Part shown: piece by piece, positions 28,921 to 44,908 of the stretch | How positions within the stretch are numbered: the stretch's first letter is position 1 | Layout of the letters: each line of letters opens with the position of its first letter | Source of the DNA: a virus | Length of the DNA stretch: 64,000 nt | Direction: 5' to 3' (one strand) | IMG/VR virus record: IMGVR_UViG_3300045988_175328 | Coordinates: 163,220-227,219 of that record | The notes under the pieces: model-generated | The model's input: the letters and a program-made list of their open reading frames with translations, nothing else | Told to the model about the DNA's origin: nothing | The model's database searches: none | Position numbers and translations under genes: made by a program

Positions 28921-28968
28921 AAGGGGTGCCCGAGCGAAGCGAGGGGTTAACGCCCCTTTTATTTTTTT
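28921..28968 (+). terminator. intrinsic terminator whose loop holds the first GA/GAA hairpin unit
   Basis: aaggggtg...cgcccctt stem then tttatttttttc. Confidence 0.7.
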
Positions 28969-29475: not shown

Positions 29476-29608
29476 ATTGTTTGTTCTTGTATACTATATA
29501 ATAGTATAAGAAAGACAAGAATTTTTTTGTTTGTCTTATAGTACTATATAGTATTAATAGTAAAAGAAATAAAAAAAAGAATGCCGGAAGTGGTCTTGAA
29601 GAGATTTA

Positions 29609-29636
29609 TGGTAATATAAGTCATGGTACATGACTT
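29609..29636 (+). promoter_or_regulatory. extended -10 (TGgTAATAT) followed by GTA-triloop hairpin, unit 1
   Basis: tggtaatat then aagtcatg-gta-catgactt then aac. Confidence 0.5.
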
Positions 29637-29786
29637 AACCCGTGGGAATTGTGGACGACCCTTCCTTCCGGTGCATGTACCTTTTTTATTTTTTGTCGCT
29701 GGCTCTTATTTAATTTTTGTTCTTGTTATATACTATATATATAATAATAAAAGAAATTAAAATAAGAATCGGCGCCGAGAAAATTT

Positions 29787-29813
29787 TGAGTAATATAAGT
29801 CTCGAAGAGACTT
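29787..29813 (+). promoter_or_regulatory. TGagTAATAT followed by GAA-triloop hairpin, unit 2
   Basis: aagtctc-gaa-gagactt then aac. Confidence 0.5.
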
Positions 29814-30036
29814 AACCGTGAGGTAGAATGGCCGGATGAATTGCTATTGTCTTATACTATATATATAGTAAGACACATAACATATCGCCGCCCGAACCCT
29901 TTAAAAAATTTTATTATTAAATTAATTTATATTTTTTAATTTTTTCGCCCCTGGTATTTTATTATAGTACTATATAGTAATAATATATAAACATAACAAC
30001 ATAATAATAATCGCCCGGGCTTCCTGAAAAAATTTT

Positions 30037-30062
30037 TGGTAATATAAGTCTCGAAGAGACTT
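30037..30062 (+). promoter_or_regulatory. extended -10 (TGgTAATAT) followed by GAA-triloop hairpin, unit 3
   Basis: identical hairpin aagtctc-gaa-gagactt. Confidence 0.5.
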
Positions 30063-30238
30063 AACTCCTTACCCCCGGTATCTTGATCCCGTAGGGGTCT
30101 TATTGTACTGTATCTACACTATAGTACTTACCGAACAAAATGTTTCTTATCTTACTTTTTATTCGGTTGTACATAGGGTTAGACACTTCGGTACATTAAA
30201 AAATTTTTTTTCTAAAAAAATGACTAACGTAACTTTTA

Positions 30239-30262
30239 TGAGTAATATAACTAACGTTAGTT
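30239..30262 (+). promoter_or_regulatory. TGagTAATAT followed by palindrome aactaacgttagtt, unit 4
   Basis: same TAATAT box, different but still palindromic downstream sequence. Confidence 0.45.
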
Positions 30263-30329
30263 TTCTTCGAAGAGAAGTAAGCTGAAACTGCAAGGCTGCC
30301 TGCTCTACGACTGCCCGTACGGTTTTTTA

Positions 30330-30930
30330 TAGAAGAATGGTAGTGTATTAATACTGTACTGTTAGTACTACTAGTACTGTACTACTCGACCCACACCTTT
30401 TGTGGCTGTGCCCTAAAAGGACGGGCCACTCTAATAGTTTTTTTACAGAAATTGTAGTTAATTTGTACTATTTCTAATGCAATATTAATAGTAAAACTGC
30501 ATTGGTTTTTCTGTACTTATAGATATACTAATTGCATTAGTTTTACAGATACAATTGTATTGGTTTTACAGTACCAACAGTTAACTAACACTACAGTACT
30601 TACAGTACTAATAAGACCGTACCAATGGTTTTAATGGTACTATAGTAAGATTGTACCATTGCCAATACAGCACTGCAAATAAAACCGTACTGTTTTGCAG
30701 TACTAAATGGTAATTAAATTGGTATGTTAATACAGTACTAACAAAACTGAACCAATGCTATTAATAGTACTACAGTTAAACTGTATCAACAAGACAGTAC
30801 CTATAGTACTATCAGAACTATAGTTAGATTGTATCAATAAGACAGAACCAATAGAACTATTGAAGCTATAGAAAGACTGTACTAATTAAACTGTACTAAT
30901 AGTATTAACAGTACATATAGTAAAGTAGTA
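30330..30930. repeat. GTAC-rich iteron field (possible origin or protein-binding array)
   Basis: I count 21 GTAC tetramers, mostly as CAGTAC(T/C) or CTGTACT, interleaved with about 10 copies of ACTGTAYCAATGGTTTTA-like repeats. Confidence 0.7.
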
Positions 30931-30994
30931 TTATATTAATAATTGTAATAGTAGTATTAATAATAAGAAGAATAAAGAAAAGAAAAATTTTTTT

Positions 30995-31022
30995 CTTAAG
31001 GGGCAAGCCCCTTAACAACCCC
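30995..31022 (+). repeat. H5 28-nt element, copy 2
   Basis: cttaaggggcaagccccttaacaacccc preceded by A5T7. Confidence 0.9.
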
Positions 31023-31025
31023 AAG

Positions 31026-31053
31026 TTGGTGAAGTTTAAAACAGCAGTAATAT
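31026..31053 (+). promoter_or_regulatory. candidate sigma-A-type promoter
   Basis: TTGGTG, 16-nt spacer, TAATAT. Confidence 0.4.
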
Positions 31054-31059
31054 AAAGAC

Positions 31060-31268
31060 TGTGTTTTTTGTATCACCTCCAATACCGAAACACACATCAT
31101 AATGTTTCCTCCTTTCTAAAATGATGAGAACTGAGAGCTCGGTTGAAACTTAGACCGAGCCTTGGTCTTATCGCGTTTACGCGTAATATACGAGTCCTGT
31201 AAGGACTCGATAACTGGAAACGATGTTAATTTATAGGAATATAGCCGCCCGTTTGGGCGGCTTTTTTT
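31060..31268 (+). ncRNA. candidate small RNA or structured leader (three hairpins + terminator)
   Basis: gctcggt/accgagc, cgcgt/acgcg, cgagtcc/ggactcg stems, then agccgccc-gttt-gggcggct T7 (31243-31268); no ORF. Confidence 0.4.
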
Positions 31269-31289
31269 GTTTTATTTGAGGTGTTATTT

Positions 31290-32018
31290 ATGGGATTTGA
31301 TGGAAACTATAAAGACGAAAAATGGATTGTTTCGATAAACCGAGAGAAGAATCTTATTATCGAAGAACGAGGTGAGTTGTATGAAGTTCAATGTATCGGA
31401 ATGAATGGCAATGTGTTAGTCGACAGAGTATTCTTTATGGGCCCGATTAGCGAAGAAGAAGTTTGGGAACTTATCTGGAGACTGAGATTGGAAGGTATAG
31501 ACGGAGAACTAACGATAGAAGAAAGTGGTTTGAACTATAAGGATTGGTTTGACGGGTTCGGTTTATACGAAAGCGATTTGTTATTTGGAGGATCCTGTTT
31601 ATGGAGAAGAACTGTCGGAGATGTTATTATCGATATCGGTATATCAGGTAACGGTAGAAATATTATGTACGAGAGAAAAGAAGATAGTTTCTTTGAAGTT
31701 TTAGTATATAGTGGTAACAGTAAAATTAGAAGTGAAATTAGTCAAAGTAAGAGCTTTGGTATTGGTAGTCCTTATAATAATAGTGATATTCTTAGTAATA
31801 GTATAGATAGTGTTATTATTGATAATAGTAATAGTAGTAATAATAGTGGAGATGGTAATAATGGTATATATAGTTATAACTATAGTGGATTACCTTGTTA
31901 TTATAGAGGATATATTAGTTACTATATAGTATTAGAGATTATAGATATGTTTATTAGAGAGTATGGAGGAGTTAAAGAGAAAAGAAAAATTTTTTTTCTT
32001 AAGGGGCAAGCCCCTTAA
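31290..32018 (+). CDS. family C two-domain paralogue with Ser/Asn low-complexity insert
   Basis: 242 aa from ATG 31290 (GAGGTG RBS); C-terminus runs into H5 copy 3. Confidence 0.7.
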   Translation: MGFDGNYKDEKWIVSINREKNLIIEERGELYEVQCIGMNGNVLVDRVFFMGPISEEEVWELIWRLRLEGIDGELTIEESGLNYKDWFDGFGLYESDLLFGGSCLWRRTVGDVIIDIGISGNGRNIMYERKEDSFFEVLVYSGNSKIRSEISQSKSFGIGSPYNNSDILSNSIDSVIIDNSNSSNNSGDGNNGIYSYNYSGLPCYYRGYISYYIVLEIIDMFIREYGGVKEKRKIFFLKGQAP

Positions 32019-32025
32019 CAACCCC
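31998..32025 (+). repeat. H5 28-nt element, copy 3
   Basis: identical 28-mer; contains stop codon of 31290 gene. Confidence 0.9.
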
Positions 32026-32134
32026 AAGTTGACGTAGGTTTAAAGTGCTACGTTAGCAAATAAAATCCTCATTAGTGAGGCACATTTAATGCTATCTATA
32101 GAACATACGTTCTTATTAATAAGGAGGTGATCTT

Positions 32135-32446
32135 ATAAGATATCAAAGCTGTGAAGAATTTGAAAGCTACTTCGACGGTCGATTTTATCTATTAAAAGAT
32201 CTTATTCGTGGAAATAAATTATTATGGGAAGTTGAAATAGATAAGTATACTGTTATAAATATATTAACTGAAGGAGACAGGTATGGAATAATATATCCCG
32301 AGAAAGAACGGAACTATTTTGAAGTAGGTATAATGTATGAGTCAGAAGGAAGCAATGATATTACACATCAAACTATATTAAATGTTCCTTATTATGTGGC
32401 GCTTGAAATAATAAAGAGCTTAAAAGAAGATACTTTAAAGGAGTAG
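32135..32446 (+). CDS. family B paralogue lacking a canonical start codon (possible ATA/CTT start or pseudogene)
   Basis: open frame from 32126; AGGAGGT RBS 5-7 nt before ATA 32135; product ...FESYFDGRFYLLKDLIRGNKLLWEVEID...VPYYVALEIIKSL closely matches 37213 product; absent from ORF track. Confidence 0.5.
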   Translation: MRYQSCEEFESYFDGRFYLLKDLIRGNKLLWEVEIDKYTVINILTEGDRYGIIYPEKERNYFEVGIMYESEGSNDITHQTILNVPYYVALEIIKSLKEDTLKE

Positions 32447-32450
32447 TTTA

Positions 32451-32786
32451 ATGAATGCAGAAGAGATATTTGATAAATATTCAAAATGGTTCGACGGAGA
32501 TTTCTCTATACGTTCAAATGTTATCGAAGGACATTTTATTATAGAAGGATATAATTATATATGGAACGTCAGAATCGGCAAGGACCTTATTATGGAAATC
32601 ATGACTAATGGTAAAAGTTTAGGAAGAATTTATTCTAAAAAAGAAGATAGCAGCTTTGAACTAAAGATTATTAATATTCAAAAGAAAGAAGATGAAGAAT
32701 ATCCATCTCAAACAATTGAAGATTTTTATAGCTATGTTCCTTACCATGTAGTGCTTGAATTAATTTATGCCTACCGTAATAATTAA
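32451..32786 (+). CDS. family B paralogue (WFDG...VPY.VVLE.I small protein)
   Basis: 111-aa ORF, AAGGAG RBS. Confidence 0.75.
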   Translation: MNAEEIFDKYSKWFDGDFSIRSNVIEGHFIIEGYNYIWNVRIGKDLIMEIMTNGKSLGRIYSKKEDSSFELKIINIQKKEDEEYPSQTIEDFYSYVPYHVVLELIYAYRNN

Positions 32787-32851
32787 TATTCATTAATTTG
32801 CGTATTTATGTATCGGCAAAAATCCTCATTTGTGAGTTATTTTTATGTTCT

Positions 32852-32875
32852 GCCAGTGTAGAAATATTTGCTGGC
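32852..32875 (+). promoter_or_regulatory. H3 hairpin with GTAGAAATATTT loop
   Basis: gccagt/gctggc stem, 22 nt before ATG 32898. Confidence 0.6.
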
Positions 32876-32897
32876 TGTGTTATTATAGGAGGTACTT

Positions 32898-33155
32898 ATG
32901 TATTATCGTGATTGGTTTAAAGATTCTTATTTTGAAGAACCATTTGATGGTGGTTTGCGCTGGCATATTGAAGGTAAAAAGTATACTATTAGTATCGTTA
33001 CCGGCGCATTCGTAATGGGTAAGAAGTCTTTTTGTCGTGAAACAAGTACTTATGAAGTTGCTCTATTACGAAAAGATGGTACTGTTATTTATGACAGTAT
33101 TGAAGGTTATTTAGATTATAATGAAGTATTAGGATTTATTGAAAAATATGTATAA
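32898..33155 (+). CDS. divergent family B paralogue
   Basis: 85-aa ORF, AGGAGG RBS. Confidence 0.7.
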   Translation: MYYRDWFKDSYFEEPFDGGLRWHIEGKKYTISIVTGAFVMGKKSFCRETSTYEVALLRKDGTVIYDSIEGYLDYNEVLGFIEKYV

Positions 33156-33468
33156 TACTGAATTTTTTAATATAAATGATTATGAAGATTGGTTTTTCGG
33201 CGCCGATATTTATTTCGATAATTTTATCGGCGGCGACAAACTAAGATGGATTGTCTTTTACAGAAAAGGCTTTTATTTAAATATTAGTATTCTTATTGAA
33301 GATATTTTAAAGAATAAAGAATCTAATATATTTGATCTTAGTATGAACAAATTAAATGAATACAAGGGCGAATTATTATTTGATAGTATTGATGATGTTC
33401 CTTATTATTTAGTCCTCGAAATAATAAAAGCTTTAGAGAATTTTAATGAAAGAATGCGATTGGGTTGA
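33148..33468 (+). CDS. family B paralogue
   Basis: 106 aa from ATG 33148 (track ORF starts at TTG 33139); ...DDVPYYLVLEIIKALENF. Confidence 0.65.
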   Translation: MYNTEFFNINDYEDWFFGADIYFDNFIGGDKLRWIVFYRKGFYLNISILIEDILKNKESNIFDLSMNKLNEYKGELLFDSIDDVPYYLVLEIIKALENFNERMRLG

Positions 33469-33479
33469 AGAAGGTTTTT

Positions 33480-33815
33480 ATGGATAAGAAAGATTGGTTT
33501 GATAATTGTTATTTCTATAGCTGGGAAAAAATAATGTGTTGTGAAGACGAACATATATGGAGAATCAGAATGGGTGATGGAACATATATTGAAATACAAG
33601 TCGGCGGCTATTCTGAGAGATCTTATTTAGGCGATAGCCGAGAAGAGAGTTGTTTCGACATGAGTCTTTATAATGATGATCAATATGATTTTGTGAATAG
33701 AGTAAGAAGCTTTATTCCTAAGGGTATTTTTGATAATGGCCCATTAGAGGATGTTCCTTATGATGATTGTATTAAAATCATAGAAAAACAAAAAAAAGAA
33801 TGCGGCTTTATTTAA
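33480..33815 (+). CDS. family B paralogue
   Basis: 111 aa from ATG 33480 (track ORF starts at 33465). Confidence 0.65.
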   Translation: MDKKDWFDNCYFYSWEKIMCCEDEHIWRIRMGDGTYIEIQVGGYSERSYLGDSREESCFDMSLYNDDQYDFVNRVRSFIPKGIFDNGPLEDVPYDDCIKIIEKQKKECGFI

Positions 33816-33837
33816 TTTCTTTTTTTGTGGAGGCACT

Positions 33838-34446
33838 ATGATATTTAATGGAACTGAATATGAAGGAGAAGCTAAGATTAGGATATCCGATGATCATTAT
33901 CTTTTAGTTCGAGAAGAAGATGGTCTATATGATGTCTCATCTACTTCTGAAAATAACAGAATAATTGCAGATAAAACATATAATCTTGGTCTGATTGAAG
34001 AAGACGAAGTACTTGAATTAATATGGACATTGCGGCAAGAAAAGATCCGTAGTGATATTTGTCTCAAAGAAAGATTTAAAATATATTCTAAATGGTTCCC
34101 TGGCTTTGAAATGTATAAAGAAGATTATATTTACGAAGGATATTATACATGGATGAAATTAATTAGTGGCCCCGAAGGATTAAATATTGTTATTAATATG
34201 TGCGGCAAAACTGGCAGCTTAATATATGAACGTAAAGAAGATAGTTTCTTTCAAGTTAGTCTATGTTGTCATAATGACAAAATGAAAGAACCTATTTATA
34301 AATTATTTAATATCGATAATAATAAAAAAAATAGTATTGGTGGCAATAATTTTTATGAAACCTATGGCATTTATTCTTGTAATTATGTCAATTACTATAT
34401 AGTTCTAGAAATAATAAAAGTAATAAAGAGGTTATATGATATTTAA
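33838..34446 (+). CDS. family C two-domain paralogue
   Basis: 202 aa; MIFNGTEYEG...LYDV...KIYSKWFPGFE...NYYIVLEIIKVIK. Confidence 0.75.
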   Translation: MIFNGTEYEGEAKIRISDDHYLLVREEDGLYDVSSTSENNRIIADKTYNLGLIEEDEVLELIWTLRQEKIRSDICLKERFKIYSKWFPGFEMYKEDYIYEGYYTWMKLISGPEGLNIVINMCGKTGSLIYERKEDSFFQVSLCCHNDKMKEPIYKLFNIDNNKKNSIGGNNFYETYGIYSCNYVNYYIVLEIIKVIKRLYDI

Positions 34447-34954
34447 CGGAGTTTTATATAAAAGAAATAAAATTAAAAAAAGAATATCTGATGACAAATA
34501 TCTTTCGATTCAAGAAAAAGACGGTCTATATGATGTAACTTGTATTTCTGATACAGGAAATGTATTTGTAAATAGATCCAAATACTTTAATTTATTGGAA
34601 GAAGATGAAATGCTCGATTTATTATGGGACTTGCGGATTGAAGAAGCTCGTAACAGTATTCGCATTAAAAAAAGATTTAAAATATACTCTAAATGGTTTT
34701 CTGGTTTTAAGTTAGATGTTGATGACTATATATATGAAGGTTTCTATATGTGGCAAAAAACTATTGGAGATTATTCTATTCTTATTAATACTTTAAGAGA
34801 TACTAGTAGTATTATGTATGAAGATAAAGAGATTAGTTTCTTTGATGTTGATATACATTATTGTAGTAAAGATAATAGTATTTCTTATTATTATAGAGGT
34901 GTTAATTATTATATAGTAAGAGAAATAATAAGAGAAATAAAAAAGTTTTCTTAA
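34436..34954 (+). CDS. family C two-domain paralogue
   Basis: 172 aa; MIFNGVLYKR...LYDV...KIYSKWFSGFK...NYYIVREIIREIK; stop lies inside H5 copy 4. Confidence 0.75.
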   Translation: MIFNGVLYKRNKIKKRISDDKYLSIQEKDGLYDVTCISDTGNVFVNRSKYFNLLEEDEMLDLLWDLRIEEARNSIRIKKRFKIYSKWFSGFKLDVDDYIYEGFYMWQKTIGDYSILINTLRDTSSIMYEDKEISFFDVDIHYCSKDNSISYYYRGVNYYIVREIIREIKKFS

Positions 34955-34977
34955 GGGGCAAGCCCCTTAACAACCCC
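34950..34977 (+). repeat. H5 28-nt element, copy 4
   Basis: identical 28-mer. Confidence 0.9.
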
Positions 34978-34995
34978 TTGGAGAGGAATGATTGA

Positions 34996-35307
34996 ATGGA
35001 CGTGCTAGGCGTGTTCAAAGAATATGCAGAATGGTTTGGAGGCGATTTTACTTATAACACTAACAGTATGAAAGGAGACAGGTATATATGGCGGATTAGA
35101 GTTCGTATGAGTACTTTCGTCGAAGTCATAACATATGGCAATCGATTTAAAGACAGGTATCCTGAGAAAAAAACTTGTACCTTTGAAATAAAAGTTATTA
35201 ATATTATGAAAGATGGCGAACGTACTGGTAAAATAATTGAAAAAGAATATACTGGTGTCCCTTATTATTTAGTGCTTGAACTTATTCGTGCTTATCATAA
35301 TAGTTAG
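34996..35307 (+). CDS. family B paralogue
   Basis: 103 aa; ...YAEWFGGDF...GVPYYLVLELIRAYHNS. Confidence 0.75.
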   Translation: MDVLGVFKEYAEWFGGDFTYNTNSMKGDRYIWRIRVRMSTFVEVITYGNRFKDRYPEKKTCTFEIKVINIMKDGERTGKIIEKEYTGVPYYLVLELIRAYHNS

Positions 35308-35319
35308 TTTTTAAGTGCA

Positions 35320-35343
35320 GCCGGTATAGAAATATTTGCCGGC
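35320..35343 (+). promoter_or_regulatory. H3 hairpin with ATAGAAATATTT loop
   Basis: gccggt/gccggc stem (compensatory change relative to gccagt/gctggc). Confidence 0.6.
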
Positions 35344-35360
35344 TATAAAGAGGTGAAGGT

Positions 35361-35933
35361 GTGATTAGTAGTATAACCGCCACTAGACTCGTTAGTATGA
35401 TGAGTCGTGGTGACGTTTTTTATTTTGTCAGATACATGAATGGCGAATATGAGATTATAGCTCAAATTGTTAAAGGTGTCGCTAACTCTTTATATACACG
35501 CACTGAACATTTTTATTTTAAAGGCGCCAAAATATATTATTGGGAGTTTATGTCTTGGACAAAAGAAAATAAAAGAAGAGTCGGCAATTTGTATGAGATA
35601 AACATAGATGATGATATTATTACAGATATATTTTATCAAATGCACGATGAATTAAAGGACAAAGTTGGCGCCAAATATTCTAATGCATTTATGACAAGAG
35701 CTGATACTTTACTTGGTAAATTTATTAATCAGGATGATGATTATGATTACTCTTATAATAAAAAAGATTTTTATGGTTTAGAATATATTGATGAAGTAAA
35801 ATCAGATACTATACCTAATAGTATTAAAAGAACTAAAATTAAAACTATTAGTAGTATGTTCTTAGATGTTTTATGCGGCGAATGGTACTATAATATAGAT
35901 CCTAAATTAATAGATATTAAGAAAGTAAAGTAA
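35361..35933 (+). CDS. family A paralogue (KYMNG.YEI...HFYFK...IYYWE...KRTKIKTI)
   Basis: 190-aa ORF, GTG start after GAGGTGAAGG. Confidence 0.7.
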   Translation: MISSITATRLVSMMSRGDVFYFVRYMNGEYEIIAQIVKGVANSLYTRTEHFYFKGAKIYYWEFMSWTKENKRRVGNLYEINIDDDIITDIFYQMHDELKDKVGAKYSNAFMTRADTLLGKFINQDDDYDYSYNKKDFYGLEYIDEVKSDTIPNSIKRTKIKTISSMFLDVLCGEWYYNIDPKLIDIKKVK

Positions 35934-35947
35934 GAAAGGAGTAATCG

Positions 35948-36547
35948 ATGGAAGATATTAATAGATTCTATAAACATTTTGACGGCACTTTAAAGAACGG
36001 CCTTAAATTTGTCGATCTTGCTTTATTCGTATCTTTAATTAACAATAAAGATTATACTACAATATATTTCTATGAGAATAGCGATATTGAAATTAAAACT
36101 TTTAGATACGTTGTTTCAGGAGAGCGGTTATATTCTTATGAAGACATGTATATTGTTAAAGATAACTTATATTGTATAGAAAGAGTAAGAAGCAGCAATC
36201 ATTCTAATGATGATACTGTTCTTATTTCGAAACGTGTGTTTAAATATAATATATCTAATAATGATATTATTAGCGCCTATTTAGAATATAGTAGAGAATA
36301 TGACCCTAAATTAATTAAAGAATCGGCTCGAAATATAGCAAGAGCTCTTAGCTTAAAAGGAAGTATCTTTGCTTTTGAAGAAGACACATTGTCTATTGAA
36401 ATATGTCCTGGAATTGAAAGATGCAAGAAAATTGTACGAAGTACTCCATCTATTATTTCAGATATTCCGGATGTATTAATAAATAAAGAATACTTTAAGC
36501 CTGAACTTATATGGAGCGACGAAAGAGCATCAACGTTTGGCAAATAA
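35948..36547 (+). CDS. hypothetical protein, distant family A-like
   Basis: 199-aa ORF, AAGGAG RBS. Confidence 0.7.
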   Translation: MEDINRFYKHFDGTLKNGLKFVDLALFVSLINNKDYTTIYFYENSDIEIKTFRYVVSGERLYSYEDMYIVKDNLYCIERVRSSNHSNDDTVLISKRVFKYNISNNDIISAYLEYSREYDPKLIKESARNIARALSLKGSIFAFEEDTLSIEICPGIERCKKIVRSTPSIISDIPDVLINKEYFKPELIWSDERASTFGK

Positions 36548-36586
36548 AAATCCTCATTTGTGAGGCGTATTTAAAGAGCATATATT
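36546..36586 (+). promoter_or_regulatory. H2 element that coincides with a plausible sigma-A promoter
   Basis: AAAAAT A-tract, TTGTGA (36558-63), 17-nt spacer, TATATT (36581-86), 27 nt before ATG 36614. Confidence 0.5.
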
Positions 36587-36613
36587 TGTATTAATTCATA
36601 AGGAGAAATAATT

Positions 36614-37198
36614 ATGAGAACAGAAGAAGCGTTAGCTATGTTAATTGCTATGGTTAGTCATATGTATAGTGCTAAACGTTATGATTATGAATTTAGCAAA
36701 GAAATTGTATTAAATAAAAGAGTCGGCGATACTATTATTGAAGATCACTTTTTAATTGAAGGCGAAAGTGATGTATATTATTGGCGCGAAAGTAAAGATA
36801 TTGTTGACGTAGAGAACGGCTTCTTTATTTATGGAAATATTGAATATAGTAAGATCACTTCCTTTGGAAAAGATATTAATGTATTTATTTCTGAATTTAA
36901 TGAATTATGCTTAGGTGGCGATAAAGAATTATTAATGGTGCGTTACAATGCAATTAAAGAATTATTATCTGAACGCCGCAGCTCTAGAATTTATTATTTA
37001 TCTGGCGATCCGTTCGAAGATTTAGGCGGACGCAATCTCCCAAATGGTATTTCTAGATATGGATGCCGATATGGTGTTTTAGAGAAATATGCATATTTCG
37101 AAACTAAAGGCAATTCTATCGATAAAGTATATGATTTTAAATATATTGTACCTAAAGTTGTCAATAAAAATACTAATTATGTATTTATTCTTAAGTAA
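36614..37198 (+). CDS. hypothetical protein, distant family A-like (VYYWRE)
   Basis: 194-aa ORF, AAGGAG RBS. Confidence 0.7.
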   Translation: MRTEEALAMLIAMVSHMYSAKRYDYEFSKEIVLNKRVGDTIIEDHFLIEGESDVYYWRESKDIVDVENGFFIYGNIEYSKITSFGKDINVFISEFNELCLGGDKELLMVRYNAIKELLSERRSSRIYYLSGDPFEDLGGRNLPNGISRYGCRYGVLEKYAYFETKGNSIDKVYDFKYIVPKVVNKNTNYVFILK

Positions 37199-37212
37199 AA
37201 AGAAGGTTTTAT

Positions 37213-37515
37213 ATGATCAGCAAAGCTTGGCAGAAATATATATATTGGTTTGATGGTCGATTTTATGTATTAGAAGACCCTATTCGTGGAAATAAAGGAT
37301 TCTGGGAAATTGAAATCGATGAAGATACTTTTGTAAATATATTAACTGATGGATATAGATGTCAAAAATTATATTCCAAAAAAGAACATAATTATTTTGA
37401 AGTTAGCGTCTCTTATGAAACAGAAGATAGCGATAATTTTGTAACTCATACCTTATTATATGTTCCTTACTACGTAGTTTTAGAGATAATAGAAGGATTG
37501 AAGGAATCATTATGA
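37213..37515 (+). CDS. family B paralogue
   Basis: 100 aa; ...YIYWFDGRFYVLEDPIRGNKGFWEIEID...VPYYVVLEIIEGL. Confidence 0.75.
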   Translation: MISKAWQKYIYWFDGRFYVLEDPIRGNKGFWEIEIDEDTFVNILTDGYRCQKLYSKKEHNYFEVSVSYETEDSDNFVTHTLLYVPYYVVLEIIEGLKESL

Positions 37516-38072
37516 TTAATATAATGCCCGCAATGAATCTTGTTAGTATGATGACAGATGCTGAATATTATATTTTAGTTAAATATATGAATAGTGATTT
37601 TGAAATCATATCTGGAATAAATAAATATATATCTGATTCAATGTATGGTTATGATAAACATTTTTACTTTAAAGATAATACTATATACTATTGGGAAACT
37701 AATATTTTTACATCTAAAGCAAAAACCAATATAAATGTCAGTGATTTATATGAAATAGATATCGATGAAAAACAAATTAATAAATTGTTTAAAAATATGT
37801 ATCATGAATTATCAGATAAATTAGGCTCTAAATATTCAGATGCTTTTGTTGAAAGAAGAAATAGATTGTATAATAAATTTACTTCTAAGGAATCAGTTCC
37901 TATTTCTTGTCCAGAAAATAGATTAGAAATTCTTGAGATTGGAGAGAGAACTATTCCTAATAAAATAAAAAGAACTGAAATAGAAACTGTTTATAGTATT
38001 GTCTTAGAAATATTAGATACTAGATGGAATTATACTATTGATTATAATTTAATAGATATGATTAAAGCCTAA
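37512..38072 (+). CDS. family A paralogue
   Basis: 186 aa; ATGA overlap with previous gene. Confidence 0.75.
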   Translation: MINIMPAMNLVSMMTDAEYYILVKYMNSDFEIISGINKYISDSMYGYDKHFYFKDNTIYYWETNIFTSKAKTNINVSDLYEIDIDEKQINKLFKNMYHELSDKLGSKYSDAFVERRNRLYNKFTSKESVPISCPENRLEILEIGERTIPNKIKRTEIETVYSIVLEILDTRWNYTIDYNLIDMIKA

Positions 38073-38101
38073 TAATTATTTCGTATAAAAGGAGGTTTTT
38101 T

Positions 38102-38683
38102 ATGCTAAGAGAAATGGAACTTATTAGACTTGTAAGTCTTATGAGTAATGCTAATTTTTATATCTTTATTAAATATATGAATGGCAATTATGAGATTGTG
38201 GCAGAAACTTCTATTACTATGTCTGCTCATATTTATTTACATAATAAACATTTTTATTTAAAAAATGGGCAATTATATTATTGGGAAACTAAAATTAATT
38301 CAAATACTGAAACAGGAGTAGAATATAAAGAGGTTTACAATCTATATGAAATAAATATAAATAAAGATCGAATTAATCAATTATATGAGATGATGCATAA
38401 CAATTTATTAGAAAAACTTGGTTCTGATTATTCACATCAATTTGTTAAAAGAACTGATCGTTTATTCGACAGATTTACTTCTAATGAATTATATGGTCTT
38501 TATATTTATAATCATAAAAATGGAGACATGGGAAAAATGCCTTTAGAAATTAGTAATGGAACTATTCCCAGTAAACTAAAAAGAACTAAGATTAAAATTA
38601 TTAACAGTATATTATTATCTTATTCTAGTAACATATGGAAGTATTGTATAGATTACAAGTTAATTAATATGAATAAAATATAA
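38102..38683 (+). CDS. family A paralogue
   Basis: 193 aa; AAGGAGG RBS. Confidence 0.75.
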   Translation: MLREMELIRLVSLMSNANFYIFIKYMNGNYEIVAETSITMSAHIYLHNKHFYLKNGQLYYWETKINSNTETGVEYKEVYNLYEININKDRINQLYEMMHNNLLEKLGSDYSHQFVKRTDRLFDRFTSNELYGLYIYNHKNGDMGKMPLEISNGTIPSKLKRTKIKIINSILLSYSSNIWKYCIDYKLINMNKI

Positions 38684-38689
38684 GTTTTT

Positions 38690-38714
38690 TTAAGGGGCTC
38701 CGCCCCTTAACAAC
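38690..38714 (+). repeat. H5 element, divergent copy 5
   Basis: ttaaggggctccgccccttaacaac; stem kept, loop changed. Confidence 0.7.
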
Positions 38715-38748
38715 TTCGATATTTGTATTTGATATAAGGAGAAATATT

Positions 38749-39162
38749 ATGGACATCAAACAAATCTCACGATTAATTTGTATGACAAGTCAAGGAAATA
38801 GTGTTAAAACATCTTTTTTTGAAAATGCTATTTTCATGACAGTAGTTAAAAATAAAATTCTTTGTGGCACTGAATGTATTCATCAATATCATTATAAAAT
38901 TAAAGATAATGAACTTGAGTTTTTTGAAAATTTTATAGGGCCAAATGAATTTGAATTAAAATCTCCATCTTTAAAACTAAAATATAGTTTAAACGATTGG
39001 ATGGAATACTCTGAAATTATTGGTGAAGGATATGCTGAATATCGATCTGAAGAGATTGAATCAATTCTTCTAGAATATAAGAATGATCAAGAGATATTTA
39101 ATCGATCTGATTCTATTGCAGATACTGATTTCTCAATGAACATTCCTTACCATAAAAAGTAA
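38749..39162 (+). CDS. hypothetical protein, distant family A-like
   Basis: 137-aa ORF, AAGGAG RBS. Confidence 0.7.
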   Translation: MDIKQISRLICMTSQGNSVKTSFFENAIFMTVVKNKILCGTECIHQYHYKIKDNELEFFENFIGPNEFELKSPSLKLKYSLNDWMEYSEIIGEGYAEYRSEEIESILLEYKNDQEIFNRSDSIADTDFSMNIPYHKK

Positions 39163-39163
39163 C

Positions 39164-39192
39164 TTGACAGAGAATATAGTATTTGTTACAAT
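39164..39192 (+). promoter_or_regulatory. near-consensus sigma-A promoter
   Basis: TTGACA (39164-69), 17-nt spacer, TACAAT (39187-92); leader then has agctggc/gccagct hairpin. Confidence 0.7.
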
Positions 39193-39283
39193 TTAATTGT
39201 CCAATACAATAACACATTGTTTTTCTCCTGTAATTTTGCGTAAGCTGGCTTTATGCCAGCTTTTATGTTTTAGAAGGTGAGTT

Positions 39284-39787
39284 ATGTTACATGAACATTG
39301 GAAGCGATTGCAAGAACCTGTTGATGAGTTAATGCAAGAAGAATTATTGAAACACATAAAAGAATATTGTAAAGAAAATAAATCTTTAGAAGCTCAATGT
39401 TTAAATGACATACTTAATAATACTTCTAAAGAAAATATATTAGATTATTATACTTCTTTTGCTGGAGAAGACTTTAAAGAAACGAATTTAATATTTAAAT
39501 CAGTTAATGGCGCGATAGCTGCTATGATTCGATATAAAATAACTAATAACACACTAGTAACAGTTGGTATTATTGTTGCTGATAAATATAATAATAGTTC
39601 TTTCATTTATAATCTAATTAAATCTTTAAATATTCTTTTAATTAATAGATATAAATTAGATTTTACTTATGTTTTAAAAATAATCAAACAAGATCTTATC
39701 AAAGAATTTGAAAATATCAAAGATTTTAGAAATGCGTCGATTAATAAAAAAGAATTTGCTTTGTTTTTATGTTATCTTGACATGTAA
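39284..39787 (+). CDS. hypothetical protein unrelated to flanking families (moron-like insert)
   Basis: 167-aa ORF with its own promoter; interrupts run of family A genes. Confidence 0.7.
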   Translation: MLHEHWKRLQEPVDELMQEELLKHIKEYCKENKSLEAQCLNDILNNTSKENILDYYTSFAGEDFKETNLIFKSVNGAIAAMIRYKITNNTLVTVGIIVADKYNNSSFIYNLIKSLNILLINRYKLDFTYVLKIIKQDLIKEFENIKDFRNASINKKEFALFLCYLDM

Positions 39788-39805
39788 AATATTATATGTT
39801 ATTAT
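39777..39805 (+). promoter_or_regulatory. near-consensus sigma-A promoter
   Basis: TTGACA (39777-82), 17-nt spacer, TATTAT (39800-05); followed by long hairpin aaacagccccatgcag...ctgtatggggctgttt. Confidence 0.65.
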
Positions 39806-39902
39806 AATAGTGTAAGCACGCAACACTCTATTCAAAAGAAACAGCCCCATGCAGTATAATTCTGTATGGGGCTGTTTCTTATTTATGAAAGAAGGTGAGA
39901 TT

Positions 39903-40469
39903 ATGATTGATTTCATGTATATAGCTAAACTTATTAGTATTATGACTTCTAGTGATTTTTATTATGTCATTAAATATGTAAATAAAGATTATGAAGTTAT
40001 ATCTCAAACAGGAAATGAAGTAGGAGATTCAGTCTATACATATAATAAACATTTTTATTTTAAAAAGAATAAAATATACTATTGGGAATCTAAAATATTT
40101 CATTTAAATAAAGCGACAGAAACAAAAATAGAAGTTAATGATTTATATGAGATTAAAAATAATGCTCATGGAATTAATAAACGATATGAAATGATGTATG
40201 ATGATTTATTAGAAGAACTAGGTCCTGAATATTCAGAGCTCTTAGAAAAAAGAACGGATAAATTATTTGAACATCTTGTTTCTAAAGAGCCTATAGGGCT
40301 TTATTGTTATTATATCGAATCTGCTCCTGAAATTGAAAATAATATGATTCCTCCTAAATTAAAAAGAACTAAAATTAAAACTATTAATAGTTTGTTCTTA
40401 GGATTTTCTGATATTAAATATGATTATTGTATTACTTATGGATTATTAGATATAATTAAAGTTAACTAA
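39903..40469 (+). CDS. family A paralogue
   Basis: 188 aa from ATG 39903 after GAAGGTGAG (track ORF starts at 39849). Confidence 0.75.
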   Translation: MIDFMYIAKLISIMTSSDFYYVIKYVNKDYEVISQTGNEVGDSVYTYNKHFYFKKNKIYYWESKIFHLNKATETKIEVNDLYEIKNNAHGINKRYEMMYDDLLEELGPEYSELLEKRTDKLFEHLVSKEPIGLYCYYIESAPEIENNMIPPKLKRTKIKTINSLFLGFSDIKYDYCITYGLLDIIKVN

Positions 40470-40495
40470 TAATTATACATTAAGGGGGTGCGACT

Positions 40496-40960
40496 ATGCT
40501 TAGTAATCATTATATTTCAATGCTTGTTGCATTATTATCAATAGGCGATAAAATTAATGTTCAAGAACATGAAGATTGTCTTCTTGTTTCAGTCGTAAAG
40601 ACTGAAAAAGTTCAAGATAAAACATGGAAAGACATATATACTTTTGAATTTAGAGACGATATTATTTTTTTAGCAACTCATAGTACGTATAATGATAAAG
40701 ATACGTCTTTAAAAATAACTAAAGATAAAGTAATTCATTCTATTAAAATAGAGCCAAAAGAAATAGAAAACTTATATGATGAAATGTTCGATAAGTTATT
40801 TCATTTTAATAAGAAAGAGGCTCAAAAATTCATGGCGAGACGAATACAAATATGCAATTTCTTGCGACGCAAAGACTATTTAGATGGGTCTATCCAATTA
40901 AAATATCCTGAATTTAATTATGTTATGTTAAGAGAAATGTTTAACATGGAAAGATTATAG
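40496..40960 (+). CDS. hypothetical protein, distant family A-like
   Basis: 154-aa ORF, AAGGGGG RBS. Confidence 0.7.
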   Translation: MLSNHYISMLVALLSIGDKINVQEHEDCLLVSVVKTEKVQDKTWKDIYTFEFRDDIIFLATHSTYNDKDTSLKITKDKVIHSIKIEPKEIENLYDEMFDKLFHFNKKEAQKFMARRIQICNFLRRKDYLDGSIQLKYPEFNYVMLREMFNMERL

Positions 40961-40968
40961 GCAATTAA

Positions 40969-41607
40969 ATGAGCAAAGAACCAAAAAAACTAAAAATAAA
41001 TACAGAGCGCGCTTTTGATAATATGTTTAAAAATAATTTTAATAATACCATGTTAAATAATGGCATGGAATTATCGTATGCCATGGCTTTGTTTACTATT
41101 GTGAATACTACGAATATAATCAATATCTATACTTATAATAACGGAGATATTGAATTAATTGGTGAGAATAAGCATATTTTTAATTCTAGAACAAGAATAT
41201 TTAAAATTCATTTATATTTTGGCGATAAAATTTATTACTGGAAGGATTCTAGTTTAAAAGAATCTAAAGATGAAAATACTGTTCAAAAATATGCCGATGA
41301 ATACTATGAAATCTGTTTAGATAAAGAAGGAATACTTAAATTATTTAAAGAAGTTCTTAATGAATATAGCAAAGCAGAGCTCATTGAAGAAAGTATTTCA
41401 TTCTTGTATCGTTTTCAAGAAGGATTAAATAAAATAACTTATGCTAATAAATATGGCGAAGTCAGAAAACATAATGTCGATCCAAATTCCAAGATTAAAA
41501 TTAGACGAGGTTCCACATATACTTCTGTCCGAGCATTTTTTAATGATCCAAATAGACGAGAAACATCTTCTATTAATGAATCGTTTTTAAATCTACGAAT
41601 TGTTTAA
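40969..41607 (+). CDS. hypothetical protein, distant family A-like (IYYWKD)
   Basis: 212-aa ORF. Confidence 0.65.
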   Translation: MSKEPKKLKINTERAFDNMFKNNFNNTMLNNGMELSYAMALFTIVNTTNIINIYTYNNGDIELIGENKHIFNSRTRIFKIHLYFGDKIYYWKDSSLKESKDENTVQKYADEYYEICLDKEGILKLFKEVLNEYSKAELIEESISFLYRFQEGLNKITYANKYGEVRKHNVDPNSKIKIRRGSTYTSVRAFFNDPNRRETSSINESFLNLRIV

Positions 41608-41678
41608 TTTTATATTTCCATTAATATCTCATGTAATGATATAATAAAGTGATAAATACTTTTTTAAAGGAGACATAA

Positions 41679-42119
41679 ATGGAAACATATTATTCTACAC
41701 GCGATTTTTGTGAAGAAGTATTGCGAAGCTTACCATTAGAAGAATCCACTAAAATTAATTTTGGAAAAGGCAAGGGAAATTTTGGTGGATTTGAATTTAG
41801 AAATAAAGACAATCGAATTGGATATTTAACGATTGAAAATTTAGAAAATCGTACTTATTTCTATTGTCTTTTTTTCTTTATGTTTGAAGATCAATATGTG
41901 TATAGAAAAATAAAAGTCGATAAAAAGCCAAATGAAATTCTTAAAACTAAAAATCCTCCAATGCATGAAGATCCATTAGATAGAATTTTGTATGTAATGG
42001 AGAAAACTCTTTTAGATTTTAAAAGAAAGAAAACAATCATGTATACTTTAGAAGAATTAAATGGTTTATTATTCGACGCGAGTAATTATCCAAATGGGGG
42101 GGGATTTTATGAAAATTAA
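41679..42119 (+). CDS. hypothetical protein
   Basis: 146-aa ORF, AAAGGAG RBS; 3' end contains a G8 tract (42096-42103). Confidence 0.7.
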   Translation: METYYSTRDFCEEVLRSLPLEESTKINFGKGKGNFGGFEFRNKDNRIGYLTIENLENRTYFYCLFFFMFEDQYVYRKIKVDKKPNEILKTKNPPMHEDPLDRILYVMEKTLLDFKRKKTIMYTLEELNGLLFDASNYPNGGGFYEN

Positions 42120-42456
42120 ATACGAAACAATAGATGAGTTAAGTCTATCTTTAAATATATTGCTTAAATATCACTATTTAGAACCTGATAATATTAATGT
42201 TTCTAAAGGAAAAAATAAGTTTAAATTTAATTTTGAAAAAGACAAACTTAGCTTAATGCAACTTGAAATGAAGATTTTAAATAAGAAAGCATCAGGCGAA
42301 TTTTTCTTTCAAGGATGCAAAGGAACTTATTATTTTACTGTGGATCAAGAAATAGATTCATTCTATCCATTCATTGAGTATTTTGCTAAATACTATAAAT
42401 TAAATGGTCATGATAAATTATCTTTAAAATTGGAGCCAGAAAATGCAAGATTTTGA
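42109..42456 (+). CDS. hypothetical protein
   Basis: 115 aa from ATG 42109 using the G8 tract as RBS (track ORF starts at 42061). Confidence 0.65.
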   Translation: MKIKYETIDELSLSLNILLKYHYLEPDNINVSKGKNKFKFNFEKDKLSLMQLEMKILNKKASGEFFFQGCKGTYYFTVDQEIDSFYPFIEYFAKYYKLNGHDKLSLKLEPENARF

Positions 42457-42757
42457 TTTTTTAGAAATCGATTATGCTGTCGATGAAGAAGATCCTAGAT
42501 GGATAAATATTAAAAAATTAAATTTCAATAAGAATTTAAGTTGGCATAAATTTCCTGAAGATTGCCGATACAATAGTTATATTCATTTTTATAATAACGA
42601 AATAGCTATTGCTATGTACACCGAAGATGACGCTCATACTTGTATGTATATAGAAGAAGGAAAGGACGTTAACATCGTTTTGTTCGATGAGTTTAAAAAG
42701 GTTTTAAATCAACAATCTGAAGAAATAAGAAAGGTGGCATTTAATTCAAATGATTGA
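42443..42757 (+). CDS. hypothetical protein
   Basis: 104-aa ORF overlapping previous gene by 14 nt. Confidence 0.65.
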   Translation: MQDFDFLEIDYAVDEEDPRWINIKKLNFNKNLSWHKFPEDCRYNSYIHFYNNEIAIAMYTEDDAHTCMYIEEGKDVNIVLFDEFKKVLNQQSEEIRKVAFNSND

Positions 42758-43106
42758 CGATGAAATATTCCAAAAGATGCTTGTTCGATATAGAAATTAC
42801 ACTGACTTAAGTCAAGATTTCATCGAAAAAATTGAAGAATCTAACAAACAAAAAGTAATTGAACTAGAAGTTGTTGGTGTTCAAGAACCTGGAGTTTTTC
42901 ATTTACAGTTCTTCGGAGAAAGAAGTAATGTAATTGGCGAAGCCAGTATCGTATATCATCAAGGATTAATTACCGGAATTTTAGATTTCGGAAGAAAAAA
43001 CGAAGAAGTGTTTCCTTTCGAAGTATCTAATAAAAGTTTAAAGATTAATAATTTAATCCAAGAATTTGAAAAATACATTCAAGTTGATTTTATTAATGAA
43101 ATTTAG
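42750..43106 (+). CDS. hypothetical protein
   Basis: 118-aa ORF overlapping previous gene by 8 nt. Confidence 0.65.
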   Translation: MIDDEIFQKMLVRYRNYTDLSQDFIEKIEESNKQKVIELEVVGVQEPGVFHLQFFGERSNVIGEASIVYHQGLITGILDFGRKNEEVFPFEVSNKSLKINNLIQEFEKYIQVDFINEI

Positions 43107-43107
43107 C

Positions 43108-43139
43108 AGCCGCCCTTCGGGGCGGCTTATTTTTATTTT
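43108..43139 (+). terminator. intrinsic terminator with UUCG loop
   Basis: agccgccc-ttcg-gggcggct then tatttttatttt. Confidence 0.9.
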
Positions 43140-43140
43140 C

Positions 43141-43156
43141 AACCGTCTCCAACGGA
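43141..43156 (+). repeat. 16-nt direct repeat aaccgtctccaacgga, right copy
   Basis: exact match to 28974-28989. Confidence 0.85.
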
Positions 43157-43168
43157 ACAAGATGAATT

Positions 43169-43615
43169 ATGCAGAACGAAAAAAGAGCGTATCTGATCTT
43201 AGAGATGTTCTATCAAACAGGGAATGAAATTGTTTTCAGTGCCTTCAATAGAACCAATCAAGTGTCTTCCAGATATACAAATTGCTATTATCGAAATGGT
43301 TTTTGTCAAAGACAAATTTTATTTGACGGAGGCAAGGTTTATCGATACGAAGTAGTCGAAGATTTAGATACAAAAATTAATCATGTGGCTCATCAATCTT
43401 GTATTAGATATAAAGACTATGACCACATTAAACCTATTATGGAAAAAGAATTGATCGCTCGATATGGTATAACTAAATATGAGCGATATCTTAATTTAAT
43501 TGACAGAGCCTGCAATGAAACATACGGCTCATTTACAACAGAATTTTATTCCTTTTCAATTCCTCCAATTGGAGAATATGACGATACATTAGAAGACATA
43601 GAGGTGATATTTTGA
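43169..43615 (+). CDS. hypothetical protein
   Basis: 148-aa ORF. Confidence 0.65.
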   Translation: MQNEKRAYLILEMFYQTGNEIVFSAFNRTNQVSSRYTNCYYRNGFCQRQILFDGGKVYRYEVVEDLDTKINHVAHQSCIRYKDYDHIKPIMEKELIARYGITKYERYLNLIDRACNETYGSFTTEFYSFSIPPIGEYDDTLEDIEVIF

Positions 43616-43707
43616 GTCCGGCATTTGTTGTTTTTGGATATATTTTAGTATTATTATTAATTGCGGCCATTTTATGGGCGCTAGAAATACTATTATTTAA
43701 CAAGTAA
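43612..43707 (+). CDS. possible 31-aa hydrophobic peptide
   Basis: TTG start 5 nt after GAGGTG, overlaps previous stop; SPAFVVFGYILVLLLIAAILWALEILLFNK. Confidence 0.35.
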   Translation: MSPAFVVFGYILVLLLIAAILWALEILLFNK

Positions 43708-43733
43708 TTTATTCTTTAAAAAGGAGAACTCTC

Positions 43734-44189
43734 ATGAACTTAGTAACTAAAGAAATAATCTTAACTCGACTCGATAAAAAAGGTGCACTAAGTGCACTTG
43801 AATCAACTATTGAAAAATTTCATGAAGAATATCATAATAATAAATATAATTTTAAAGATGTCGATAATCATATTGAAGAATTTAAATTATATAATGGAGA
43901 GTTATTCTATCGCTCTACTAACGATATTAATATTGACTTAAATACATTAAAAAATAGTAACGATGAGTATGTAATTAATGATTTAATGCGATTAAAATCT
44001 TCAGTAAATCTAGCTCTTCTATTAAAAGAAAAGAATTTTAATATGATTCCAGTACCAGAAGATCTTTTAGATAATCTATATCTTAATATAAAACTATTCT
44101 TAAAAACAATTGAACGAATCGAGTTAGCATTAGAAGCTCTCAATCGAGCCGATACTATTCTTAATGGAGAGGATGGCTTCCGAGTCTAA
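43734..44189 (+). CDS. hypothetical protein
   Basis: 151-aa ORF, AAAGGAG RBS. Confidence 0.7.
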   Translation: MNLVTKEIILTRLDKKGALSALESTIEKFHEEYHNNKYNFKDVDNHIEEFKLYNGELFYRSTNDINIDLNTLKNSNDEYVINDLMRLKSSVNLALLLKEKNFNMIPVPEDLLDNLYLNIKLFLKTIERIELALEALNRADTILNGEDGFRV

Positions 44190-44411
44190 TGAAATACCGT
44201 CAAATTGTTAAAACGGTAGCACATGCTTGTATTAACTATAAATTAAGTCTTCCTATAGACTTTAAATTAATTTTAACAAGAACTTCGTGCATGTTGTATG
44301 CTAAAGGAGAGAATGATGCTACATTTAAAGGTCGACTAATTTTATTGAAATTCAGAACTAACACTCGTGATTTTAATCATGAGATACAGTTTTGGAAATT
44401 AGTAAGCCTGT
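44189..44411 (+). CDS. exon 1 of a small gene interrupted by an IStron
   Basis: ORF 44189..44413; its TAG stop is created by the intron, since the predicted 5' splice site follows T44411. Confidence 0.6.
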
Positions 44412-44815
44412 AGGGAAACTTGCAGGTAGAAATAGCTTTTAGCTATTCAACGAAGAAACTGAATTGCTGGGAACCCCTAAAGCTCAATTAACTACAATAT
44501 AGATTTGAAATATAATCAAGTATGAATGTGGCGAAAGCAGAAAAAATAATTGAGATAAGATATGGTTAAACCCTAAGTCTTAAGATAATGGGCAATCAGC
44601 AGCGAAGCTCCGAATAGGAGAACGTTCAACGACTATTCCTCGTGAGGGAAGTACACCGTAAGCGATTGACGGTGGAAGTGGTGTCGCCTAAGTCGCAATA
44701 GCGATATGGATAAGATATAGTCTGTGCTTATGCGAAAGTATAAGATGCGCGTAATGGCGCTGGTTAGGAATAGCGATCCTGATTGAACGAGACCTCACAA
44801 AACATGGTTCTAAAA
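44412..44815 (+). ncRNA. group I intron catalytic core
   Basis: P1 hairpin 44407-44426 with GAAA loop and U44411-G44422 wobble; P aattgctgggaa 44462-73; Q aatcagcagc 44594-603; R gttcaacgacta 44624-35; S aagatatagtct 44712-23; several GNRA hairpins. Confidence 0.8.
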
Positions 44816-44908
44816 TGTCCTGTAAAAGTTTTACTGAAAAGTTGTTTTTTAGTAAAAGTATGTTATAATAATCTCGTAATATAGTAATTAGAAAGCGAGG
44901 TGATAATA

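Follow-up and report, generated by a model that had tools for sequence, protein, structure and literature searches.

The interval 31290-43615 of a 64,000-nt stretch of viral DNA (IMG/VR record IMGVR_UViG_3300045988_175328, positions 163,220 to 227,219; the whole stretch is referred to as the window) contains an array of 25 small genes in 12.3 kb. All-against-all BLASTP comparisons and iterative profile searches carried out inside the window revealed that 18 of these 25 genes are firm members of two paralogous families, named A and B. A preliminary description of the same DNA had counted about 30 genes, which was an overestimate, but on the whole it was largely correct, and the family pattern goes well beyond what chance would give. 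All genes of the array are on the plus strand and are designated here by the position of their first nucleotide. They are tightly packed or overlapping, as previously described, with gaps from -14 to +121 nt, and most of them are preceded by ribosome-binding sites of the AGGAGG type. The guanine-plus-cytosine (GC) content of the array (24-34%) is lower than that of the tail module (36-43%), and it is similar to that of the regions 45-54 kb and 1-3 kb, so that the earlier statement of a much higher AT content than elsewhere in the window holds only in part: it applies to the tail genes but not to the other small-gene regions.

Family A has eight members, four core and four divergent. The core genes 35361-35933 (GTG start), 37512-38072, 38102-38683 and 39903-40469 encode proteins with 36-44% identity and BLASTP E values of 1e-34 to 1e-52. 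The divergent genes 40969-41607, 35948-36547 (E value of 1e-8 on its first appearance), 40496-40960 and the truncated 38749-39162 were recruited over successive profile rounds. Two additional genes that had been proposed as distant members, 36614 (36614-37198) and 43169, are not supported: the iterative search with hidden Markov models (HMMs) missed both, their hhalign E values were 0.036 and 0.055, and profiles enriched with orthologues brought no improvement. The other eight assignments to this family were recovered.

The family B domain is present in ten genes, standing alone in seven and preceded by a common extra N-terminal domain in three, which are termed family C. The seven stand-alone genes, all of them listed in the preliminary description and recovered by BLASTP and profile searches, are 32135-32446, 32451-32786, 32898-33155, 33148-33468, 33480-33815, 34996-35307 and 37213-37515. 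Among them, 32898 is short and divergent (85 amino acids; profile round 2, E value of 1e-5), 33480 is Cys-rich, and 37213 overlaps the next family A gene by ATGA. The open reading frames (ORFs) of 33148 and 33480 are open from TTG codons at 33139 and 33465, respectively. Gene 32135 is missed by ORF lists because it starts with ATA, with no ATG, GTG or TTG available; this start is located behind a perfect AAGGAGG, and it is ATG in the orthologues of three relatives. The family C genes are 31290-32018, 33838-34446 and 34436-34954, the last one overlapping the preceding gene by 11 nt. Their two-domain structure was confirmed, and the motifs quoted earlier for the families were found in the sequences. 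Gene 31290 also carries an N/S-rich low-complexity insert (31719-31860) encoded by tandem repeats of the TAATAG/TAATAATAG type. Its orthologue P0018 is different in length by one residue, and replication slippage therefore looks likely.

All members of both families are located within 31.3-41.6 kb, and the profile search found none elsewhere in the window. Families A and B are unrelated to each other by hhalign (E value of 0.46). When the N-terminal domain of family C, a candidate degenerate B-like half, was aligned with family B by hhalign, P values of 0.002-0.003 and a sensible topology were obtained, a result that is not significant across the 171 profile pairs tested. Gene 39284 (39284-39787) is unassigned, and family links were sought without success for the five small genes at the end of the interval (41679, 42109, 42443, 42750 and 43169; 41679-43615). 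A search for a third family among 36614, 39284, the genes in 41679-43734 and the flanking genes yielded only the pairs 26598/27321 and 25633/47362.

Pfam scans of 34 sequences, both single-protein and per-member, revealed no recurrent family. The PHROGs scan of the members gave no match, including to structural families, and the same result was obtained with PADLOC, which covers defence systems only, and with the family profiles against PDB sequences. In profile searches of a collection of 5.8 billion proteins, the family A profiles gave 5 and 7 hits and the family B profile 12, all of them from the same phage clade. An exhaustive search of 1.84 billion representatives with a B profile of 115 positions, from which the columns of the family C N-terminal domain had been dropped, produced 13 proteins of the clade and one spurious match. 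The latter, P0026, is a eukaryotic CUB-repeat protein of 1421 amino acids that was matched through seven short repeats, and it was rejected.

Structure prediction with AlphaFold2 was carried out for family A (37512, model m97a77072891a) and family C (33838, model m02f7b254ebf3). The family A model, with a predicted local distance difference test score (pLDDT) of 82.8 and a predicted template modelling score (pTM) of 0.83, starts with a helix at the N-terminus, which is followed by a meander of six strands and by two long helices, and a disordered linker then leads to a strand at the C-terminus; for the family C model these scores were 77.0 and 0.62. Foldseek comparisons of both models with PDB, and of the family A model with BFVD, found nothing below an E value of 1e-3, with template modelling (TM) scores under 0.35, for models that rest on shallow alignments (13 and 21 sequences). 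In the Foldseek results, family A weakly resembled CapZ, an actin-capping protein (E value of 0.009, TM score of 0.2, root-mean-square deviation above 20 A), and this was rejected as noise. A match in BFVD to protein B3FJF0 of phage 201phi2-1 had an E value of 0.03 and a TM score of 0.24, and no sequence or fold similarity of the phiKZ type was found. By these searches and models, families A and B appear to be new and restricted to one phage clade, with no known domain or fold. They match no known structural or housekeeping domain, and the earlier statement that no function is recognisable agrees with every sequence and fold search made. The accompanying caution, according to which the sequence itself does not reveal the function, still holds after the profile, AlphaFold2 and Foldseek checks.

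Six genomes were compared, namely the window (W) and the relatives L001, L003, L005, L012 and L014, the last two forming a second subclade. The ratio of non-synonymous to synonymous substitution rates (dN/dS, omega) was 0.02-0.3 for nearly all genes against the close relatives L001 and L003, and 0.1-0.5 against the second subclade. The most constrained gene was 40969 (omega of 0.02-0.12), and the values for 37512 and 38102 against L001 and L003 were about 0.6, with few substitutions. Ratios well below 1, together with the Shine-Dalgarno sites, show that the array genes are real, and they are under purifying selection, which argues for their expression.

The array is retained in all six genomes examined, and its composition is variable. 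Family A is present in 8/7/7/5/4/6 copies and the B domain in 10/8/9/8/8/7 copies across the six genomes, the window having the largest set. Gene 31290 is missing from L001 and L003 and present in L005, L012 and L014; 38749 is missing from L001 and 38102 from L003. In L001, 33838 and 40496 are frameshifted (assembly error is possible). The ATG of 32135 has been lost in the window, where it has become ATA, and the L014 orthologue of this gene has a TAG stop at codon 12. The genes are individually dispensable, with copies gained, lost and pseudogenised. The duplications are old, as the identity between paralogues is 20-45%, compared to 90-99% between orthologues of the closest relatives.

The description of the array as mosaic was borne out by gene sets, copy numbers and patchy identity among relatives. 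The window shows 95-96% identity to L001 over 33.5-38.7 and 39.2-44.3 kb, whereas its first 2.8 kb (31.0-33.8 kb) has 92% identity to L014 and only patchy similarity to L001, and the region 41-43.7 kb has only 75% identity to L014. The synonymous divergence (dS) of neighbouring genes spans 0.05 to 1.6. Protein P0009 is a chimera in which the N-terminal part of a 34436-type gene is joined to the C-terminal part of a 33838-type gene, and the mobile cassette of 38102 is found in L014 with 97% identity at another position of the array. The array is therefore recombinant, with cassettes exchanged between diverged relatives.

A repeated hairpin element of 23 nt, GGGGCAAGCCCCTTAACAACCCC, is located at 31000-31022 on the plus strand. 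It consists of TTAAGGGGCAAGCCCCTTAA followed by CAACCCC, with additional exact copies at 22428, 32003 and 34955 (four observed versus zero expected) and a degenerate copy at about 38690. The element folds at -12.9 kcal/mol, has no U-tract and reaches a z score of only -1.3. A promoter-like sequence, TTGGTG-16-TAATAT, follows the first copy only. The copies at 31000 and 32003 are included in a 64-nt direct repeat that flanks gene 31290, and copies are located at several cassette borders in all six genomes. The element coincides with the junctions on both sides of 31290, with the one that follows 34436 and, in W, L001, L003 and L014, with those of the 38102 cassette, but it was not found at the main breakpoint between W, L001 and L014, near 33.47-33.8 kb. 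Genes 31290 and 34436 have ends that enter or abut the element, and the last codons of 31290 (…FFLKGQAP*) lie within it. A minus-strand ORF of 34 codons (30996-31100), with a perfect AGGAGG 7 nt before its ATG, lies in the leader that precedes the array, and the hairpin element supplies its 3' end.

Near-consensus sigma-A-like promoters of the extended -10 type (TTGACA-17-TGnTAnnAT) were predicted in the spacers before 39284 (39164-39192) and 39903 (39777-39805). Similar sequences precede several of the downstream small genes, and none was found in the tail module. A strong intrinsic-terminator-like hairpin is located at 31243-31262 on the plus strand, 28 nt upstream of gene 31290, with which the array starts, and similar sites are present at 39242-39262, upstream of 39284, and at 43108-43127.

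The array is located downstream of the tail-fibre module, on the strand that carries all credible genes of the window but one. The upstream part of the window encodes tail proteins, with matches to PHROG tail families. Two of these proteins have a Gp10_C baseplate or fibre domain, and one of the two also includes a YadA-stalk segment. Between the tail genes and the array are other small ORFan genes, spanning about 6 kb, and a conserved non-coding region of 2.4 kb that ends in a terminator. Exact-sequence look-ups revealed close homologues of array genes in many samples, on assembled contigs mostly of 214-229 kb (maximum about 229 kb), and two close homologues are named 'MAG TPA: hypothetical protein [Caudoviricetes sp.]' in GenBank nr. 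These contig sizes and labels indicate that the window comes from an uncultivated jumbo phage, with a genome estimated at about 225 kb, in line with the large phage proposed earlier. The array occupies different contig positions in L001 and L003. Neither the array nor the tail module had a megablast match among 50,697 GenBank phages, one family A protein had none by tblastn against the GenBank phages, and a scan of IMG/VR with 40969 did not find a relative. Among GenBank phages, the 1670-aa tail protein was matched only by Actinomyces phage xhp1, over a segment of 118 residues. A low-GC Gram-positive host is probable, as suggested by the low GC content, the AAGGAGG-type ribosome-binding sites and the relatives of an inserted TnpB gene.

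Regarding the properties of the products, no 19-residue segment hydrophobic enough for a membrane helix is present in the family members. Most B-domain proteins have isoelectric points of 4.4-5.1, with two at 6.6 and 9.0, and most family A members are acidic or neutral. Aromatic residues account for 12-20% of the residues of the family members, and aromatic or aliphatic side chains predominate at the invariant positions (W, F, W, Y and I in family B; I and one R in family A). Apart from a single Arg of the first family A alignment, neither family alignment has an invariant polar residue. In family B, the length of the loop that precedes the last helix ranges from about 10 to 70 residues, and the linker of family A, disordered in the model, is also variable. 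A conserved basic strand, IPxK(I/L)KRTKIKTI, closes the core family A proteins, and the divergent members have no such motif. The products would thus be small, soluble, aromatic-rich alpha/beta proteins without transmembrane segments, and the scarcity of invariant polar residues, together with the conserved core and variable loops, makes them most likely stoichiometric binders rather than enzymes.

Several known systems offer precedents. The host-takeover module of Bacillus phage SPO1 (genes 37-60) comprises about 25 small genes, mostly of unknown function, in about 12 kb, with strong ribosome-binding sites, several short operons and host-type promoters, and its products, where known, are non-enzymatic modulators of host proteins (PMC6873191, PMC8892312). 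The array is similar in its 25 small genes within 12.3 kb, in the AGGAGG-type sites before most of them and in belonging to a large phage, here with a presumed low-GC Gram-positive host. The SPO1 genes, however, do not form two expanded paralogous families, and the early timing, terminal-redundancy location and toxicity of the SPO1 module are experimental findings, whereas early timing is a proposal for the array. No similarity to the SPO1 module was detected in the PHROGs scan. Lineage-specific expansion has been described in Bacillus phage G, with about 35 zinc-ribbon genes (PMC7824862), and in both cases one small domain has multiplied within a single jumbo-phage lineage. The domain of phage G is a recognisable zinc ribbon, in contrast to families A and B.

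The variability of the array recalls the hyperplastic regions of T4-type phages, which are blocks of non-essential ORFans that differ by insertion, deletion and replacement, and in which the PeSL, short repeated stem-loop cassettes, are located at gene borders and rearrangement junctions (PMC2839356, PMC4122927). Similarly, the gene sets of the array differ among the six genomes, pseudogenes included, and repeated hairpins are found at gene borders and several cassette junctions. Unlike the PeSL, the element of the array has a different sequence and a promoter-like site after the first copy only; in addition, the T4 regions hold unrelated ORFans and the array two large families, and phage lineage and host are unrelated. 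In African swine fever virus, the multigene families (MGF) are interleaved, diverged paralogue families in a variable region with isolate-dependent copy number, and those members that have been studied bind host proteins (PMC8875878, PMC10446188). The virus is eukaryotic and without homology to the array, and the analogy is conceptual only. The phenomenon, a paralogous ORFan array in a hyperplastic region of a large phage, is known; the families are new, and as it stands the finding brings no new mechanism.

The SPO1 module and the jumbo-phage expansions, taken together with the protein properties, make binding of host proteins the most likely role. The products of the array are tentatively proposed, with confidence that stops somewhat short of even, to be stoichiometric binders of host proteins acting in takeover or anti-defence. 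According to this proposal, transcription of the array would rely on the RNA polymerase of the host and would precede that of the late structural genes or be independent of it. The paralogues would differ in the host target, or in the variant of a target, that they bind, and this binding would serve host takeover or the neutralisation of defence. One target per paralogue would explain both the retention of many diverged copies and the strain-to-strain differences in gene sets. The evolutionary description is far more secure than this functional one.

Several results weigh against host-protein binding and the early expression that it would entail. No homology of any member to host target, defence or toxicity proteins was found, and no match to anti-defence proteins was obtained through PADLOC, PHROGs or Foldseek against PDB and BFVD, no dedicated anti-defence library having been searched; the fold comparisons also depend on the shallow alignments already mentioned. 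The timing of expression is suggested indirectly, by two promoter matches. No near-consensus promoter was found for the first half of the array, and the number of promoters predicted in the region (135) is not above the shuffle expectation (115 +/- 11). Since the terminator at 31243-31262 is followed by the first gene with no promoter in between, antitermination or a promoter specific to the phage may be required for part of the array. No positive selection emerged from pairwise dN/dS, and an arms race would therefore be conjecture. Finally, the duplications are old and do not represent an ongoing 'accordion'.

Other explanations have been considered. The proteins could be immunity-type or exclusion proteins directed against rival phages, which would neutralise toxins or block superinfection, the gene set tracking the co-circulating competitors. 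Polymorphic toxin systems include arrays of immunity genes, and these are resembled by the tandem, small, diverged, mostly acidic and strain-variable paralogues described here; the many related phage genomes present in public assemblies also make exchange between phages plausible. However, none of the 34 members matched SUKH or Imm-type Pfam families at E values up to 1, no toxin domain was recognised in the scanned flanking genes or elsewhere in the window, and membrane segments, which many exclusion proteins have, are missing, so that this explanation seems rather unlikely. A role in the virion, as internal, ejected or decoration proteins of the head, is suggested by the position of the array downstream of the tail-fibre module on the same strand. 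Phages phiKZ and 201phi2-1 have paralogous families of head or ejection proteins. Such families are documented in giant phages (PMC5694885), but here the ORFan genes and the terminator-ended non-coding region separate the array from the tail genes, its GC content is 10 points below that of the tail module, no PHROG structural family was matched, and the individual loss, frameshift and swap of genes among close relatives would be unusual for components of the particle. We consider a virion role distinctly unlikely.

The conserved basic strand that ends the core family A proteins could instead point to nucleic-acid-binding regulators or architectural proteins that tune phage or host transcription, for which the zinc-ribbon expansion of phage G is a precedent (PMC7824862) and the repeated hairpins and regulatory-looking cassettes would need binding partners. 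This is very unlikely, given that family B is mostly acidic and most of family A acidic or neutral, that no helix-turn-helix, zinc-ribbon or other DNA-binding domain was detected, and that the divergent A members lack the basic motif. It seems highly improbable that the genes serve no function and are passengers, either selfish or neutral, that recombination at the repeated elements has spread: single copies are dispensable and decaying in an AT-rich, repeat-filled region, but dN/dS is well below 1 for nearly every member at two divergence depths, paralogues with as little as 20-45% identity are still intact, ribosome-binding sites are conserved, and none of the six genomes examined has lost the array.

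A more specific version of host-protein binding, which we regard as unlikely, is that A and B would represent two folds new to the structure databases and together an 'anti-immunity multigene family', in which paralogues would inhibit or decoy different variants of host defence or sensor proteins, the exchange of cassettes at hairpin elements would re-assort the repertoire among jumbo phages that circulate together, and array content would set host range at the strain level. If the paralogues do bind host targets, they would constitute a compact natural library, with about 18 variants of two small scaffolds that are apparently new, and strain variation across at least 15 phage genomes would help to assign the targets. 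The idea of multigene families, known from large eukaryotic viruses, and that of T4-type cassette shuffling would then be extended to uncultivated jumbo phages. The finding itself contributes two orphan families restricted to one clade and clearly illustrates birth-and-death evolution combined with recombination.

The non-coding region that adjoins the array upstream (28920-31280, about 2.4 kb) is conserved with 80-87% identity in all five relatives. At 28.93-29.48 kb it includes GCGAGCGAAGCGAGC in about eight iteron-like copies, and it also contains palindromic, AT-rich TATAGTACTATATAGTA motifs and GTAC-rich tandem repeats of 48 nt (30.6-30.9 kb). A function as replication origin or regulatory hub is possible. 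An Rfam search of 28.8-31.4 kb gave chance-level matches only. Three paralogous units in this region (29606-29690, 29785-29870 and 30034-30110) share the arrangement AAAATTTTTGGTAATATAAGTC-hairpin-GACTTAAC, in which an extended -10-like box is followed by a 5' stem-loop with compensatory changes (GTCATGGTACATGAC versus GTCTCGAAGAGAC), and the first unit ends in a hairpin and a T-run. All three units are kept in every relative, and they are therefore possibly small-RNA genes.

Another motif, AAAATCCTC-N4-6-GAGG, forms a 5-bp hairpin after an A-run and is located just 3' of many stop codons in the regions of small genes (for example at 22.39, 24.64, 25.55, 26.12, 28.08, 32.06, 32.82, 36.55, 46.90, 48.52 and 61.84 kb). 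It does not occur in the tail module, and it may be a phage-specific signal for transcription or RNA processing.

Downstream of the array, an insertion at about 44340-46300 carries a TnpB gene of the IS200/IS605 type (OrfB_IS605 and Cas12f1-like TNB domains; ORF 44900-46159) with about 500 nt of element sequence upstream, and it is missing from all five relatives. The closest TnpB copy (83% identity) is found in a 208-kb contig labelled uncultured Gemella sp. UMGS1894, which serves as a host lead only, and no phage similarity was found in the flanks of that copy. The remaining TnpB relatives, with about 60% identity, belong to bacterial metagenome-assembled genomes, mostly of Bacillota. The gene at 46452-46730 on the minus strand encodes a DNA-binding protein of the HU type (Bac_DNA_binding, E value of 2e-31); it is the only clearly real minus-strand gene of the window, and its position is kept in all relatives.

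No tRNA genes were found in the window, and Rfam gave no match in it at gathering thresholds. A segment of 1.58 kb (54397-55979) has no plausible ORF on either strand and contains a 34-nt imperfect inverted repeat (55655-55725), again with no Rfam match at the gathering score. Paralogue pairs were also detected outside the interval: 26598-27083/27321-27842 (54% identity), 25633-26118/47362-47877 (34% identity), 8986-9906/9916-10860 (70% identity over the N-termini) and 55980-56414/56492-56944 (26% identity). The duplication of small ORFan genes therefore seems to be a general habit of this genome.

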